Of a stretch of 64,000 bases of DNA, positions 1,633 through 12,627 are shown in pieces. Each line of letters opens with the position of its first letter. Within the stretch, counting starts at the first letter, position 1. The notes beneath the pieces were generated by a model. The model was given only the letters and a program-made list of their open reading frames with translations, did not search any database and had not been told where the DNA came from. The position numbers were made by a program, and so were the translations under genes. The DNA lies in the NCBI RefSeq assembly GCF_044324875.1, contig NZ_CP172185.1, one strand, 5' to 3'. Origin of the DNA: Escherichia coli (lineage in GTDB: Bacteria; Pseudomonadota; Gammaproteobacteria; Enterobacterales; Enterobacteriaceae).

Positions 1633-2607
1633 ATGCCAGTAATGATTAGCGGCGTGCTGTACGCCCTGTTAGCAGGGTTGATGTGGGGGCTTATTTTTGT
1701 CGGGCCGTTGATCGTGCCGGAATACCCGGCGATGTTGCAGTCTATGGGGCGTTATCTGGCGTTAGGGTTAATTGCGCTGCCCATTGCCTGGCTGGGACGC
1801 GTGCGTCTGCGTCAGTTGGCGCGTCGCGACTGGCTTACCGCCTTGATGCTCACCATGATGGGCAACCTCATCTATTACTTCTGCCTTGCCAGTGCCATTC
1901 AACGTACTGGCGCGCCTGTTTCCACGATGATTATCGGCACCCTGCCGGTGGTGATTCCTGTCCTCGCCAATCTGCTTTATAGCCAGCGTGACGGTAAACT
2001 CGCGTGGGGGAAACTCGCCCCGGCGCTGGTTTGTATTGGCATCGGCCTGGCATGTGTAAATATTGCTGAGTTAGACCACGGACTCCCCGATTTTGACTGG
2101 GCACGTTATACCTCTGGCATCGTGCTGGCGTTAGTTTCCGTGGTCTGCTGGGCGTGGTATGCCTTGCGCAACGCCCGTTGGCTGCGGGAAAACCCAGACA
2201 AACATCCGATGATGTGGGCGACGGCGCAGGCGCTGGTCACGCTGCCGGTTTCGCTCATCGGTTATCTTGTCGCCTGTTACTGGCTGAATACGCAAACGCC
2301 GGACTTCTCCCTACCTTTTGGCCCCCGTCCGCTTGTATTTGTTAGCCTGATGATTGCGATAGCTGTGCTTTGCTCATGGGTCGGCGCACTTTGCTGGAAC
2401 GTCGCCAGCCAGCGATTACCGACCGTGATTCTCGGGCCGCTGATTGTTTTCGAAACGCTGGCAGGTTTGCTGTACACCTTTTTACTCCGCCAGCAAATGC
2501 CGCCGCTGATGACGCTAAGCGGTATCGCGCTGTTAGTGGTTGGCGTGGTCATTGCAGTCAGAGCAAAACCGGAAAAGCCTTTAACTGAATCTGTCTCAGA
2601 AAGTTGA
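1633..2607 (+). CDS. ytfF: DMT/EamA-family inner membrane transporter YtfF
   Basis: 324 aa strongly hydrophobic multi-helix ORF; alternative start at 1642 (MISGVLY) possible. Confidence 0.85.
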   Translation: MPVMISGVLYALLAGLMWGLIFVGPLIVPEYPAMLQSMGRYLALGLIALPIAWLGRVRLRQLARRDWLTALMLTMMGNLIYYFCLASAIQRTGAPVSTMIIGTLPVVIPVLANLLYSQRDGKLAWGKLAPALVCIGIGLACVNIAELDHGLPDFDWARYTSGIVLALVSVVCWAWYALRNARWLRENPDKHPMMWATAQALVTLPVSLIGYLVACYWLNTQTPDFSLPFGPRPLVFVSLMIAIAVLCSWVGALCWNVASQRLPTVILGPLIVFETLAGLLYTFLLRQQMPPLMTLSGIALLVVGVVIAVRAKPEKPLTESVSES

Positions 2608-6236: not shown

Positions 6237-7640
6237 TTACTTCGCCATGCGTTTTTTACCAATAAACAACCAGCCCAGCCCCAGAGCGATAAACCACAGC
6301 GGGGTAACCAGCAGCGCCTGGCGGGTATCATCTTCCAGTGTCAGCAGCACGACCACGAACACAAAGAATGCCATACATACCCAGCACATCAGCTTGCCGA
6401 GCGGCATCTTGTAGATCGACTTATCATGCAGGTGTGGACGCTGTTTGCGGTACACCAGGTACGAGCAAAGGATAATCGTCCAGACGAACATAAACAGAAT
6501 CGCGGAAACGGTTGTAATCATCGTGAACGCGCCAATCACGCTGGGATTCACATACAACATCACCACGCCGCCGAGCAGACAGATACAAGAGAAGGTCAGC
6601 CCTTTCGCGGGTACTGCGCGCTTAGAGAGTTTAGCGAACGCTTTCGGTGCCACACCTTCCTGCGCCAGACCAAACAGCATACGGCTGGTAGAGAAGACAC
6701 CGCTGTTAGCGGAAGACGCCGCAGAGGTCAGCACCACAAAGTTGATCACGCTGGCAGCCGCAGGCAAACCTACCAACACAAACAGCTCAACGAACGGGCT
6801 TTTCTCCGGGACTACCGAACTCCACGGCGTCACGGACATAATCACAATCAACGCGAAGACGTAGAACATAATGATACGGATCGGAATGGAGTTAATCGCG
6901 CGTGGCAGTGATTTCTCTGGATCTTTGGTTTCCGCAGCTGTTGTACCTACCAGCTCAATCCCCACGAAAGCGAAAACCGCTATCTGGAATCCGGCAAAGA
7001 AGCCACTTAAACCTTTCGGGAACCAGCCGCCGTCATTCCACAAATGCGCGAATGACGCTTCTACACCGGTCGGTGACTGAAAGTGCATCGCCACCATGAC
7101 CAGGCCGACGACTATCAGCGACACAATGGCGACGATTTTGATCATCGCAAACCAGAACTCCATCTCACCGAACATTTTCACGGTGGCGAGGTTGAGCGTC
7201 AGCAGCAGCACTATCACCGCCAGCGAGGCGACCCAGTCGGAGAGATCGGGGAACCAGAACTGAGCATAAGCCGTGATCGCCACCACGTCTGCCATACCGG
7301 TTACAACCCAGCAGAACCAGTAAGTCCAGCCGGTGAAATATCCTGCCCACGGCCCGAGTAAATCGGAAGCGAAGTCACTAAAAGATTTGTATTCCAGATT
7401 CGAAAGCAGCAATTCCCCCATTGCCCGCATCACGAAAAAGAGCATAAAACCAATGATCATATAAACAAAAATGATCGACGGCCCGGCAAGGCTAATCGTT
7501 TTGCCGGACCCCATAAACAACCCCGTACCAATGGCACCGCCAATGGCAATAAGCTGAATATGTCGGTTTGTGAGATTGCGCCGTAGCGACTGTTCAGCCG
7601 GAGCCTGATCATCGGCAACGACTTTTACCTGATCTACCAT
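6237..7640 (-). CDS. cycA: D-serine/D-alanine/glycine:H+ symporter CycA (APC family)
   Basis: 467 aa ORF, MVDQVKVVADDQAPAEQSLRRNLTNRHIQLIAIGGAIGTGLF...; amino acid permease signature. Confidence 0.95.
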   Translation of the reverse strand: MVDQVKVVADDQAPAEQSLRRNLTNRHIQLIAIGGAIGTGLFMGSGKTISLAGPSIIFVYMIIGFMLFFVMRAMGELLLSNLEYKSFSDFASDLLGPWAGYFTGWTYWFCWVVTGMADVVAITAYAQFWFPDLSDWVASLAVIVLLLTLNLATVKMFGEMEFWFAMIKIVAIVSLIVVGLVMVAMHFQSPTGVEASFAHLWNDGGWFPKGLSGFFAGFQIAVFAFVGIELVGTTAAETKDPEKSLPRAINSIPIRIIMFYVFALIVIMSVTPWSSVVPEKSPFVELFVLVGLPAAASVINFVVLTSAASSANSGVFSTSRMLFGLAQEGVAPKAFAKLSKRAVPAKGLTFSCICLLGGVVMLYVNPSVIGAFTMITTVSAILFMFVWTIILCSYLVYRKQRPHLHDKSIYKMPLGKLMCWVCMAFFVFVVVLLTLEDDTRQALLVTPLWFIALGLGWLFIGKKRMAK

Positions 7641-8786: not shown

Positions 8787-9425
8787 ATGCCCGGGCGCTT
8801 TGAACTAAAACCAACCCTGGAGAAAGTCTGGCACGCGCCGGACAATTTTCGCTTCATGGACCCGCTGCCGCCGATGCATCGTCGGGGGATCATTATTGCC
8901 GCCATTGTATTGGTGGTCGGATTTCTGCTTCCATCTGATGATACGCCCAACGCGCCAGTGGTGACGCGTGAAGCGCAGTTAGATATTCAGTCGCAATCAC
9001 AACCGCCGACAGAAGAACAGCTGCGGGCGCAGCTAGTTACGCCACAAAATGATCCTGATCAGGTGGCCCCGGTCGCTCCAGAACCTATACAGGAAGGCCA
9101 GCCAGAAGAGCAGCCGCAAACTACCCAAACGCAACCATTCCAGCCAGATAGCGGAATTGATAATCAATGGCGCTCTTACCGTGTCGAACCCGGTAAAACG
9201 ATGGCGCAGCTGTTCCGCGACCACGGACTGCCCGCTACCGATGTCTATGCAATGGCGCAGGTAGAAGGCGCGGGTAAGCCGCTGAGTAATTTGCAAAACG
9301 GGCAGATGGTGAAAATCCGCCAGAACGCCAGCGGCGTGGTGACGGGCTTAACCATTGATACGGGGAATAATCAACAGGTCCTGTTTACCCGCCAGCCGGA
9401 TGGCAGTTTTATTCGTGCGCGGTAG
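8787..9425 (+). CDS. ytfB: Cell-division OapA/LysM-like protein YtfB
   Basis: Track ORF 8751..9425; start at MPGRFELKP gives 212 aa; single TM segment then Pro/Gln-rich linker and C-terminal OapA-like domain. Confidence 0.85.
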
Positions 9426-9525
9426 ATGAAGGGTCAACCAAAAGCCAGCTAAGGATTGTCTCTTTGATGACCTTACGTCTGGCTTCCAGTGCCTGAGGTG
9501 AAACCATACTGATATGTTGACATCC

Positions 9526-9547
9526 TCCACGCCCTGAAGGACGTGGA
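9526..9547. repeat. IS200/IS605 subterminal hairpin, tnpB-proximal (presumed RE)
   Basis: 6-bp stem TCCACG/CGTGGA with loop CCCTGAAGGA, 25 nt beyond the tnpB stop. Confidence 0.7.
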
Positions 9548-9571
9548 TCCCTGCTACGTTCAGGCTGTCGC

Positions 9572-10768
9572 CTAAATCATTTCGGGGGGTTCCTGCTTCA
9601 ACGAGCGGCCTGACTGCACCATCTCTCCACAGGCAAGAACGGCGTGCCCCGCCGCTAAAATGTTACGAGCGCCATTTACATCGGCGTTCGCTGTATATCC
9701 ACATGCCTGGCATCTGAATTTACTTTGTGACAGGCGATTTTCTTTCGCTGTATGACCACAGCACGCGCAACGCTGGCTTGTGTACGCTGGCGGAACAGCA
9801 AGCACCTGACCGCCACGCCAGAGCTGCTTGTACTCAAGCTGGCGGCGCATTTCATACCAGCCCTGATCCAGTATCGAACGGTTTAAACCTGATTTTGCCC
9901 GGACATTGCGCCCCGGCTGGCTGACCGTACCCGCTGCTGACTTTGACATGTTGCTGACCTTCAAATCCTCAATGACTATCATTGCGTGGTTTTTGCTGAC
10001 GGTCGTTGTGACTTTGTGAAGGTAGTCCCTGCGGATATTTGCGATACAGGAATGCAGTCGCTGTATTTTGCGTTTCTGCTTCTGCCAGTTATTGCTGAAT
10101 TTGACCTTGCGGCTTAACTGTCGCTGAAGTCTCGCCAGCTTCTTCTGGTTTTTCTGAAAACTGTTTACAGGCTCAAAGACTGTGCCATCTGACAGCGTGG
10201 CGAGTTTAGCCACGCCAGCATCCAGCCCGACCATTGATGCTGAAGGGTGAACCGGAGTTGATACTTCATTTTCAGTCTGAATACTGATGTACCACTTACC
10301 GCAGGACTGGCTGACAGTGACATTTTTCACAACACCCGTGACCTGACGGCTATTCCGGTAGCGCATCCAGCCAAGTTTCGGCAGAAAAATACGGCTGTTT
10401 TCCTGATCGAGCTTAACGCCCTGCGGGTAGCGGAATGCATCATTCTGTCCCCGCTTTTTGAATCGGGGAAAAGCAGCCCGCTTCTGGAAGAAGTTTTTGT
10501 AAGCCCGCTCAAGGTCTTTCAGTGACTGTTGCAATGGCTGTGAGGGCGAATCTTTAAGCCATTGCGTTTCAGTGGCGTTTTTCCACTCAACCAGCCAGGA
10601 AGCCATTTTCCCGTAAGGGATGTATTTATTACCGGCCTCATGATTCTCATTCTGACGTGCCAGAGCACGATTGAAAACGAAACGACATGCGCCTGCGAAG
10701 CGCCTCATTTCACGCTCCTGTTGACCACCGGGTCTTAACTGGAATTTAAATGCCTGTAGTCGTTTCAC
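9572..10768 (-). CDS. tnpB: IS200/IS605-family TnpB (OrfB), RuvC-like RNA-guided nuclease family
   Basis: 398 aa; N-terminal [13 protein letters not shown]..., RuvC-I-like IEDLKV, C-terminal zinc finger CACCGH...CQACG and RuvC-III-like DVNGARNI; full length with no internal stops. Confidence 0.9.
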
Positions 10769-10775
10769 AGGCCAA

Positions 10776-11390
10776 ATGATACTTTGGTCTGTGAGAAAAG
10801 AAACCGATATCCGGCGTGGAAGGCATTGTGTTTTCCTGATGCATGTTCACCAGGTCTTTGTCACCAAATACCGACGTCAGATTTTTGACCATGACGCGAC
10901 AGAAAAACTACGCACTTACTTTTCAAATGTATGTGCTGATTTTGAAGCTGAACTGGTTGAAATGGATGGCGAACCAGATCACGTCCATTTGTTAATTAAC
11001 TATCCTCCCAAACTGGCGATATCCAGTCTGGTAAACAGCCTCAAAGGCGTATCGGGTAGGTTACTGCGACGAGATCGACCAGATATTGCAGTCAGGTATT
11101 ACTACAAAGGCGTTTTGTGGAGTCCTGGCTATTTTGCCAGTAGCTGCGGAGGTGCGCCAATATCCGTCATCCGCCAATACATTGAACAACAGCAAACACC
11201 TGATCAGGTGGAAAACCGCGCCTTATATCCCCGCCCTGAAGGACGGGGTTTTACGGCGCACCGGATAAACCAGGCCAAGCGTATGCTGGTTGATCAAATA
11301 ATATCCCCCAAGCGCAGCAATATTAATATTCACCTGCAATGGGTCGATATCTGGCTTAAAAATATTGTGTTTCCTCCCTTCATCCAATAA
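10776..11390 (+). CDS. tnpA: IS200/IS605-family HuH transposase TnpA; ORF reads through the subterminal hairpin, so the functional C-terminus is uncertain
   Basis: HuH motif ([11 protein letters not shown]) and catalytic Tyr region ([22 protein letters not shown]); about 55 extra codons follow and cross the 11229..11248 hairpin. Confidence 0.75.
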
Positions 11391-11483
11391 GGATTCCATT
11401 AACTGCAAGTGCGCATGATTAATTTCTAAGAGACACTGTGATTTTGCATAATGCACACCTTTACTTTGGTTTTCACTATGCAC
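11223..11483 (-). pseudogene. ytfA-like regulator fragment whose 3' end is encoded by IS-end sequence
   Basis: 86-aa ORF at the position where K-12 carries ytfA (as I recall); its last codons overlap the IS hairpin, suggesting the IS inserted into or next to the gene's 3' end. Confidence 0.3.
11229..11248. repeat. IS200/IS605 subterminal hairpin, tnpA-proximal (presumed LE)
   Basis: 5-bp stem CCCCG/CGGGG with the same loop CCCTGAAGGA as the hairpin at 9526..9547. Confidence 0.7.
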
Positions 11484-11832
11484 AATTTTTAAAAACCAGG
11501 GATTAGCAATATAATAATCCCAGGTAAAATCGATGATTTTTTCAATGGCTTTTTGTGGCTGGTTAACCTGCTGATTAACAAACGCACCGATACCGACAGC
11601 GTAGAATAATTACATACCGCACAACAAGAATGTATGGTGTAAGGCGTTGTCAGTCATCTCCCTCCCTGGGTGCATCGTTATATCCGTGATGAGCGATTTT
11701 TGATATTAATATCTTTCACCATCCGCTATTTTCACTACTTCAGAAAACAAACTTATTTTTATTAATATCGATTCTTTTTCTTTGAGCATTTAACTACGAT
11801 ATTTATAAAAAAATTAAACAGGCAAAAATACA

Positions 11833-12627
11833 ATGACATTACCAACCACTATTTATTCATTTCCTGCATATTCACCCCGTTTTTCGTCCACCGACAAACC
11901 AGTAAAATTAAAATTTCATCAATACGCACGCGCTACATTACTTTCAAATCGTGGAAGAGATCATAATTGCGATGGCAGACATACTGTTGAGATCCACAAA
12001 CTAGATCTCTCAGACTGGCAAGCATTCAATAAACTAGCGATGGCGTGTAATGCTTACGATGGAATAACAATGAATGGTGATAATTCTTTTGGATGGAACC
12101 ATGAGGCTACATTAGATAATATTCACGCCCAGAAATACAATAAAGCTTACGCGGGTGCGAGGTTAACCGCAGAACTGAAATATTTATTGCAAGATGTCGA
12201 ATCCTTCGAACCCAACAGTAAATACACAATACACGAGGTTGTTTTGGGTCCAGGTTATGGTACTCCAGACTATACCGGCCAAACGATAGGATACGTTGTA
12301 ACCCTTCCTGCCCAAATGCCTAATTGCTGGTCATCTGAACTACCAACAATCGATCTTTATATCGACCAACTTCGCACTGTTACAGGCGTTTCTAATGCCC
12401 TCGGATTCATCATTGCTGCATTGCTAAACGCGTATTCTGATTTACCCCATGATTTGAAAATTGGTCTGCGTTCCTTATCAAGTTCAGCAGCAATCTACTC
12501 GGGTTTGGGTTTCGAGCGAGTGCCGCAGGACCGAGACATAAGGTGCGATCATATGCATCTAACGCCAGCAAACCATCCTGAATTATGGACACAAGAGAAT
12601 GGTGAATGGATCTACTTACGAAACTAA
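11833..12627 (+). CDS. yjfZ: Uncharacterized protein YjfZ
   Basis: 264 aa ORF at the expected syntenic position next to rplI, preceded by a very AT-rich upstream region (11650..11832). Confidence 0.7.
   Translation: MTLPTTIYSFPAYSPRFSSTDKPVKLKFHQYARATLLSNRGRDHNCDGRHTVEIHKLDLSDWQAFNKLAMACNAYDGITMNGDNSFGWNHEATLDNIHAQKYNKAYAGARLTAELKYLLQDVESFEPNSKYTIHEVVLGPGYGTPDYTGQTIGYVVTLPAQMPNCWSSELPTIDLYIDQLRTVTGVSNALGFIIAALLNAYSDLPHDLKIGLRSLSSSAAIYSGLGFERVPQDRDIRCDHMHLTPANHPELWTQENGEWIYLRN

Follow-up and report, generated by a model that had tools for sequence, protein, structure and literature searches.

Two overlapping open reading frames where the left end of a resident IS609 copy meets the ytfA pseudogene of Escherichia coli

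IS608 and IS605 from Helicobacter pylori, together with ISDra2, are the mechanistically characterised members of the IS200/IS605 family of insertion sequences. They encode a Y1 HUH transposase (TnpA) and a TnpB protein, and their ends carry subterminal hairpins rather than inverted repeats. Insertion takes place 3' of a fixed tetra- or pentanucleotide, which is TTAC for IS608 and TTGAT for ISDra2, and the target is not duplicated. IS609 of E. coli K-12 MG1655 (1503161..1504908, comprising the yncK pseudogene and insQ) is the same element as the one described here, with 33 differences over 1748 bp (98.1% identity). The K-12 copy has been reported as inactive (PMC2891674) and gave no new insertions in mutation-accumulation lines (PMC5009759).

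We analysed a stretch of 64,000 nucleotides of E. coli DNA (assembly GCF_044324875.1, contig NZ_CP172185.1), referred to below as the window, in which the region of interest corresponds to the E. coli rplI-yjfZ-ytfA-ytfB neighbourhood. A sequence-only reading had described two overlapping open reading frames (ORFs) here, at 10776..11390 (+) and 11223..11483 (-), and had proposed that a frameshift or a substitution deprived TnpA of its natural stop, that the insertion junction lies inside the 3' end of ytfA and generated a chimeric C-terminus, or both. The ORF listing confirms both ORFs at these coordinates, with lengths of 204 and 86 aa, and they overlap by 168 nt (11223..11390). In our interpretation, to which we assign a probability of roughly 0.93, the left end of a resident IS609 joins the ytfA pseudogene in this interval, and the two ORFs run across the junction by accident.

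IS609 is complete at 9517..11264 (1748 bp) and has its top strand on the minus strand of the window, with its left end (LE) towards 11264 and its right end (RE) towards 9517. Its boundaries were set by comparison with empty sites in K-12 MG1655 and strain PBP5 and with the IS copy at ydcO/ydcL. The length equals that of the mobile-element feature labelled IS609 in the annotation of K-12 MG1655, and the termini are the same in 14 copies from seven loci. GGTTTAT/CACATCAG at the empty site compares with TTTAT[IS]CATATCAG at the filled one, so there was no target duplication; on the top strand the junctions are ...GGTTTAT/CCGGTGCGCCGTAAAACCCCGTCCTTCAGGGCGGGG... at LE and ...CCACGTCCTTCAGGGCGTGGAGGATGTCAA/CATATCAG... 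at RE (the slash marks the insertion point). The unduplicated target tetranucleotide TTAT (ATAA on the plus strand) lies at 11265..11268 (-), directly 5' of LE on the top strand. All 14 E. coli copies, at all seven loci, have TTAT 5' of LE and TCAA at the RE terminus, the latter located at 9520..9517 in the window. The LE of the window copy is whole, running to ...CACCGG and then TTAT as in all other copies compared.

Both ends of the element contain a subterminal hairpin, and terminal inverted repeats are absent. In LE, an imperfect palindrome at 11218..11259 (-) was supported by fold predictions (z = -3.35 for the top-strand DNA and z = -2.55 for the plus-strand RNA) and by a motif homologous to the RE hairpin. 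Its core hairpin at 11229..11248 reads CCCCGCC-CTGAAG-GACGGGG on the plus strand, and in the outer stem GCGCC pairs with GGCGC. The RE hairpin, CCACGTCCTTCAGGGCGTGG on the top strand, is located at 9527..9546 (-) and shares with the LE hairpin the motif CC(C/A)CG(T/C)CCTTCAGGGCG(G/T)GG. With a Y1 TnpA, a TnpB, subterminal palindromes, a fixed target entered without duplication and near-identity to IS609, the element carries all family-defining features of IS200/IS605 that can be read from sequence. It lacks the intact transposase ORF of an autonomous element, as the tnpA stop codon TAG is changed to CAG and an invariant leucine to glutamine (L26Q).

Next to the LE hairpin, positions 11249..11254 occur in two forms, TTTTAC in most E. 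coli copies and in Morganella, and ATATAA in the E. coli copy at yidH and on a Klebsiella plasmid. The ATATAA form turns the long LE stem into a perfect palindrome. On the top strand, these positions correspond to the site of the guide tetranucleotide in IS608. The Klebsiella plasmid copy is flanked by TTAC and not by TTAT, whereas the yidH copy with the same ATATAA form is still flanked by TTAT.

The second gene of the element, tnpB/insQ, is located at 9572..10768 (-) and encodes a protein of 398 aa with HTH_OrfB_IS605, OrfB_IS605 (RuvC-like) and Cas12f1-like_TNB (zinc-finger) domains (PF12323, PF01385 and PF07282, all above cutoff). It is divergent from tnpA, the two start codons being 7 bp apart. 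In the window, a TAG at 9572..9574 (-) ends the protein prematurely, at 398 instead of 402 aa. This TAG occurs in no other of the 14 copies. The remaining 13, all from E. coli, have CAG there, as does a Klebsiella relative, and the change from CAG to TAG in tnpB thus mirrors the change from TAG to CAG in tnpA of the same element. The premature TAG is situated in the region of the tnpB 3' end and RE, where the omega-RNA is expected. An Rfam scan of 9000..12000 yielded no match in the interval 11223..11390 and only sub-threshold ones at the tnpB 3' end, at 9504..9687 (-), namely HgcC with 25.2 bits (gathering threshold 50), RAGATH-18 with 29.5 bits (44.9) and sot0042 with 18.1 bits (88). The TnpB omega-RNA would be expected at 9504..9687, with the 3' flank CATATCAGTATGG... 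by TTAT providing its guide and TAM.

The conserved part of tnpA comprises 143 codons at 10776..11204 (+) and encodes a Y1/HUH transposase whose O157 orthologue (WP_000604943.1) is 143 aa long. Pfam domain PF01797 (Y1_Tnp) covers aa 18-139 of the 204-aa ORF, with the full 121-position model matched (E = 3e-41), and NCBIfam model NF033573 (transpos_IS200) covers aa 13-138 with 143.7 bits against a cutoff of 55; neither Pfam nor NCBIfam gave a domain match for aa 139-204. The HUH motif reads DHVHLL, and the Y of the terminal ...RQYIEQQ is the putative catalytic tyrosine, assigned by analogy to characterised members of the family. A protein search with TnpA returned 6955 relatives. Among the matches listed, we aligned 83 from other genera, including Salmonella, Photorhabdus, Proteus, Morganella, Klebsiella and Yersinia, which were 138, 143 or 146 aa long and 80-87% identical. 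All C-termini from other genera among those listed end at the same residue, ...QYIEQQQTP[G/S/D/C/N]. This alignment with family proteins had been proposed in the sequence-only reading as a check, and none of these references shares the long extension of the window protein, the expected stop falling at the end of the 143-aa form.

At the same ytfA site, the IS609 copy of O157:H7 has TAG at the equivalent of 11205..11207 (+), where the window has CAG in an ungapped alignment of 525 nt. TAG is also found at this codon in three of three outgroup DNAs (Salmonella, the Klebsiella plasmid and Morganella), which makes TAG the ancestral state of this former stop and CAG a derived T-to-C transition at 11205. 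As judged from these alignments, the tnpA stop was removed by a T-to-C substitution and not by a frameshift, so that the proposed loss of the natural stop proved right in its substitution variant only. The codon preceding the former stop is GAT in the window and GGT in O157 and other E. coli copies, resulting in a G143D exchange. A second probable inactivating lesion is L26Q, as codon 26 (10851..10853, +) is CAG (Gln) in the window and encodes Leu in 83 of 83 relatives as well as in the O157 copy.

We also observed that two lineage-specific substitutions, one at 11203 (G to A) and the other at 11205 (T to C), together form a perfect 14-nt palindrome, CACCTGATCAGGTG, at 11197..11210, which includes a GATC (Dam) site; copies other than those with the window allele read CACCTGGT(C/T)AGGTG at these positions. 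A Dcm-site deamination hotspot was considered for the recurrent C/T change and rejected on inspection, as CCTGG at 11199..11203 in the GGT alleles puts no methylated C at 11205. For the polarity of TAG and CAG we relied on the outgroups, since the neighbour-joining tree of 14 E. coli copies was star-like and the copies themselves mosaic.

The distribution of these alleles was typed in 5426 complete E. coli genomes with 53-mers in which any 28-nt megablast seed covers both variable bases; the resulting numbers refer to copies rather than loci and do not include copies with other nearby variants or codons. The window allele, GAT-CAG, was found in 179 of the 5426 genomes with one copy each, and all sampled matches lay over tnpA and an adjacent "hypothetical protein", like the annotation of the ytfA locus in the window. 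GGT-CAG was present in 4217 genomes at 6714 places and GGT-TAG in 1573 genomes at 1766 places. CAG therefore makes up about 80% of the 8659 typed IS609 copies, that of K-12 included, and CAG copies occupy about ten loci. The ytfA site itself carries the IS in approximately 1699 genomes. Among the 14 copies sampled, ones with CAG and ones with TAG occurred at ytfA, yeaQ/DUF1869 and yfeD/gltX, only CAG at ydcO/ydcL and yfaV/yfaY, and only TAG at yidH and yedK. Loss of the tnpA stop is thus widespread among copies and by no means restricted to the one in the window. Since CAG is the majority allele and is found at about ten loci, a private lesion cannot be the whole picture; copies without the stop were still able to move, or else gene conversion spread the CAG allele.

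The 14 copies differ from each other at 1 to 53 of the 1748 positions. Pairs at the same locus in different strains show 12-45 differences and are about as divergent as pairs at different loci, the exception being two yfaY copies with a single difference. The four-gamete test failed for 652 of 1711 informative site pairs. The E. coli copies of IS609 are thus long-standing residents, passed on vertically and mosaic in their history, and gene conversion between copies is the simplest route to one polymorphism at several loci. Intact tnpA was found in three of the 14 copies, other lesions including internal stops and frameshifts, while tnpB is full length in 13 of the 14.

Given that CAG is in the majority, the loss of the tnpA stop might be functional rather than a matter of decay, either through a non-stop mRNA terminated at the LE hairpin and its UUUU, the product of which would be tmRNA-tagged and degraded so that the transposase is silenced and tnpB kept, or as a reversible switch between CAG and TAG that turns the transposase on and off. 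The co-occurrence of both alleles at the three loci named above would fit this idea, as would the fact that CAG to TAG is the sole single-step way back to a stop, the contrast between mostly full-length tnpB (402 aa) and rarely intact tnpA, and the TTTTA that follows the LE hairpin on the plus strand. However, a scan with a consensus terminator did not identify the LE hairpin as one that would end tnpA transcripts, there being only four T after the stem. Moreover, other tnpA lesions are equally common, as predicted by neutral decay, and in mosaic copies gene conversion alone can account for the shared polymorphism. We therefore regard functional stop loss as highly improbable, and a functional reading of the majority allele, be it silencing or a toggle, is possible but unsupported. 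It appears distinctly unlikely to us that selection or recurrence lies behind the stop-less tnpA of E. coli IS609, in which case the transposase would be silenced and a one-base C-to-T toggle would separate a mobile IS from a domesticated TnpB/omega-RNA module.

On the other side of the junction, the relevant reference is strain PBP5, which bears an intact 215-aa TetR/AcrR gene (WP_001298021.1) at the ytfA position. K-12 ytfA (b4205), a pseudogene by annotation, covers only residues 83-215 of this protein and has no helix-turn-helix (HTH) domain. The window remnant, ytfA', has the same 5' truncation as K-12, and what precedes PQKAIEK in this frame is unrelated and follows a stop. IS609 splits ytfA' between codons 180 and 181 of the ancestral 215-codon TetR gene, the Y180 codon TAT belonging to the TTAT target. 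Both K-12 ytfA and the intact 215-aa TetR lose homology with the window exactly at 11264/11265 and regain it at 9516. The middle fragment at 11265..11558 (-) holds residues 83-180, as seen from translations, alignments and the TetR_C_29 domain, and the N-terminal HTH is absent. The C-terminal fragment with residues 181-215 and the stop was displaced by the IS to 9409..9516 (-), where its translation is identical to the C-terminus of K-12 ytfA. Between 11223 and 11264 (-), the ytfA' frame continues into an IS-encoded chimeric tail of 13 codons followed by TAA (11225..11223).

According to the ORF listing, the 86-aa ORF at 11223..11483 (-) combines this IS-encoded tail with the longest stretch of the ytfA' remnant that begins with GTG. 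It matches PF17938 (TetR_C_29) at model positions 27-109 of 119 (E = 9e-16) and thus retains the C-terminal ligand/dimerisation domain of TetR proteins, while the N-terminal HTH and a complete ORF are missing. The domain match and the ytfA pseudogene at this position confirm that the ORF sits where K-12 has ytfA. Its last "12 or so" codons had been assigned to the hairpin region; they are indeed encoded by the IS, their exact number being 13 plus the stop. The suggested alignment with K-12 ytfA left the C-terminus of the ORF unaligned beyond the junction. The junction accordingly lies inside ytfA and did create a chimeric C-terminus, but at codon 180 of 215 and not at the 3' end of the gene. 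With stop loss and an insertion into ytfA established side by side, it was the "or both" of the earlier proposal that applied.

Upstream of the ytfA remnant, at 11559..11832, the window and K-12 have yjfZ (DUF2686). In the PBP5 stretch compared with it (1796..2426 of that sequence), the intact TetR gene lies beside a 3-ketoacyl-ACP reductase gene, and the 5' truncation of ytfA coincides with this replaced neighbouring gene content. A short piece of the window, 11563..11647, matches PBP5 with 81% identity about 545 bp further on.

The PGAP annotation of a 100%-identical sequence lists a TetR/AcrR gene "missing N-terminus" at 9409..9516, at 10776..11201 a tnpA "incomplete, missing C-terminus", and at 11223..11591 (-) a "hypothetical protein" of 122 aa (WP_227897769.1). 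By coordinate conversion, the start of this 122-aa model is an ATC codon (11591..11589). In the O157 annotation the ytfA'/LE stretch is a TetR fragment missing both termini. The significant TetR_C_29 match and the PGAP call of a coding sequence might indicate that the 86-aa ORF or the 122-aa model is a functional small TetR-C-domain protein with an IS-derived tail. Such a protein, however, would lack residues 1-82 of its 215-aa parent, the DNA-binding N-terminal part, as well as the 35 residues at the C-terminus. The pseudogene status of the K-12 counterpart, the annotation as a fragment in O157, the start of the PGAP model at ATC and a 13-aa tail that is LE read in a fortuitous frame further argue against this option, which we find scarcely believable. 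The 122-aa "hypothetical protein" is an annotation artefact of the ytfA'/LE fusion and not a credible gene.

The run-on of the tnpA frame occupies 11208..11390 (+), with 11208..11264 encoded by LE, 11265..11387 antisense to ytfA' and the stop TAA at 11388..11390. Measured against the 143-aa reference, it amounts to 61 codons including the former stop, of which 20 are encoded by LE (11205..11264) and 41 by the flank (11265..11387); the "about 55 codons" given earlier were of the right order. The LE-encoded codons include the hairpin at 11229..11248, which is therefore translated in this frame just as had been noticed. The ancestral TAG sits 57 nt inside IS609 and upstream of the LE hairpin, tnpA points toward the left end, and there is no in-frame stop between 11205..11207 and the IS end. 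The tails following ...FTAHRI vary by locus, reading NQAKRML..., KSAI (stop), NLVMRRQPC (stop), RWPSGYL..., SLEIIYT..., KTCRPYR..., NKKRQGY... and KHGLLTT.... As the tail differs for each insertion locus, the extension is encoded by the flank and is not part of the protein family. The fourth tail codon begins with A at every locus, this A being the last base of ATAA, the complement of the TTAT target. Stop-less run-on ORFs at other loci range from 152 to 254 aa.

These tails also bear on the question of whether the 204-aa ORF might be the native full-length transposase with a genuine long C-terminus, for which one could cite the thousands of database members with 204 aa (clusters P0001 and P0002) and the predominance of the CAG allele in E. 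coli. The extension passes the IS boundary at 11264 with a sequence that depends on the insertion site and lies outside every domain model, and the relatives examined from other genera end at the O157 residue (143 aa as numbered in E. coli), all three outgroup DNAs having TAG; the locus-dependent tails already refute the idea, which we give practically no chance. A frameshift or a truncated LE as the source of the extension, as might be suspected from the PGAP label "missing C-terminus" on the identical sequence, can be dismissed just as firmly, because the 525 nt aligned with the O157:H7 copy contain no indels, only substitutions distinguish the window tnpA from TAG-bearing copies, LE is complete and flanked by TTAT like that of other copies, and the 1748 bp equal the length of K-12 IS609.

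The overlap between the two ORFs can be explained by their register. The tnpA and ytfA frames are antisense codon on codon, plus-strand codon 11265..11267 lying opposite minus-strand codon 11267..11265, and in this register a plus-strand stop arises solely opposite the Leu or Ser codons TTA, CTA or TCA. The TAA that terminates the run-on faces a Leu TTA codon in ...SLLDEG.... Together, TTA, CTA and TCA account for about 2.5% of E. coli codon usage. With this figure, the probability that the 41 flank codons are free of stops is approximately 0.35; under a uniform-codon model the probability for all 61 codons is approximately 0.05. Given a stop-free probability of about 0.35 in the antisense register, the 168-nt overlap is unremarkable.

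As for the history of the junction, the N-terminal HTH half of the TetR gene was already gone, in this lineage as in K-12, when IS609 arrived. The element inserted by its top strand directly 3' of TTAT, at codons 180/181 of the TetR gene and without duplication, and the ytfA' frame thereby came to run 13 codons into LE and to end at the first TAA. With the T-to-C change at 11205, translation of the tnpA frame would pass through 20 LE codons, across the junction and through 41 codons antisense to ytfA' up to a TAA. Having lost its stop and acquired L26Q in the invariant core, the tnpA of the window is most probably a decaying pseudogene that is crippled or without function, as far as its sequence suggests. 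The 61-aa C-terminal tail, which starts nine residues after the putative catalytic tyrosine, and the 86-aa TetR fragment are both presumably without function. We infer that this IS609 copy persists as a vertically inherited resident with an essentially intact tnpB.

The junction ORFs of IS609 and ytfA are ordinary gene decay and nothing new in kind, and RefSeq already annotates the identical sequence as pseudogenes. For annotation, this means that the 204-aa "transposase" and the 86-aa or 122-aa "hypothetical protein" should be treated as pseudogene fragments; they are neither a pair of overlapping genes nor a novel isoform of TnpA. The replacement of the tnpA stop in most E. coli IS609 copies alongside an intact tnpB fits the notion of TnpB/omega-RNA modules outliving the transposase. 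The alternative of TAG or CAG at a single position further provides a simple marker for the spread of IS609 alleles between loci.

The window copy shares with the K-12 element divergent tnpA and tnpB, the LE and RE hairpins, the TTAT flank, the TCAA end and CAG in place of the ancestral TAG. K-12 IS609 differs from it in being located at ydcL/ydcO instead of ytfA and in having an internal TGA at tnpA codon 96, whereas the window copy has L26Q, G143D and a tnpB shorter by four codons. The O157:H7 copy has an identical insertion site and flanks, and 9201..12000 of the window is 97.4% identical to it; unlike the window copy, it keeps TAG and L26, and its tnpA is annotated as intact (WP_000604943.1, "IS200/IS605-like element IS609 family transposase"). 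As for the disrupted gene, the fragments at 11265..11558 and 9409..9516 together make up the K-12 ytfA pseudogene (residues 83-215), which in the window, unlike in K-12, is split by IS609 after codon 180 and has gained a 13-aa IS-encoded tail. Among the mechanistically characterised elements, IS608 has the same TCAA right end and IS605 the same divergent arrangement of tnpA and tnpB. The window element is set apart from IS608 and ISDra2 by its target TTAT and by a tnpA that is probably dead.
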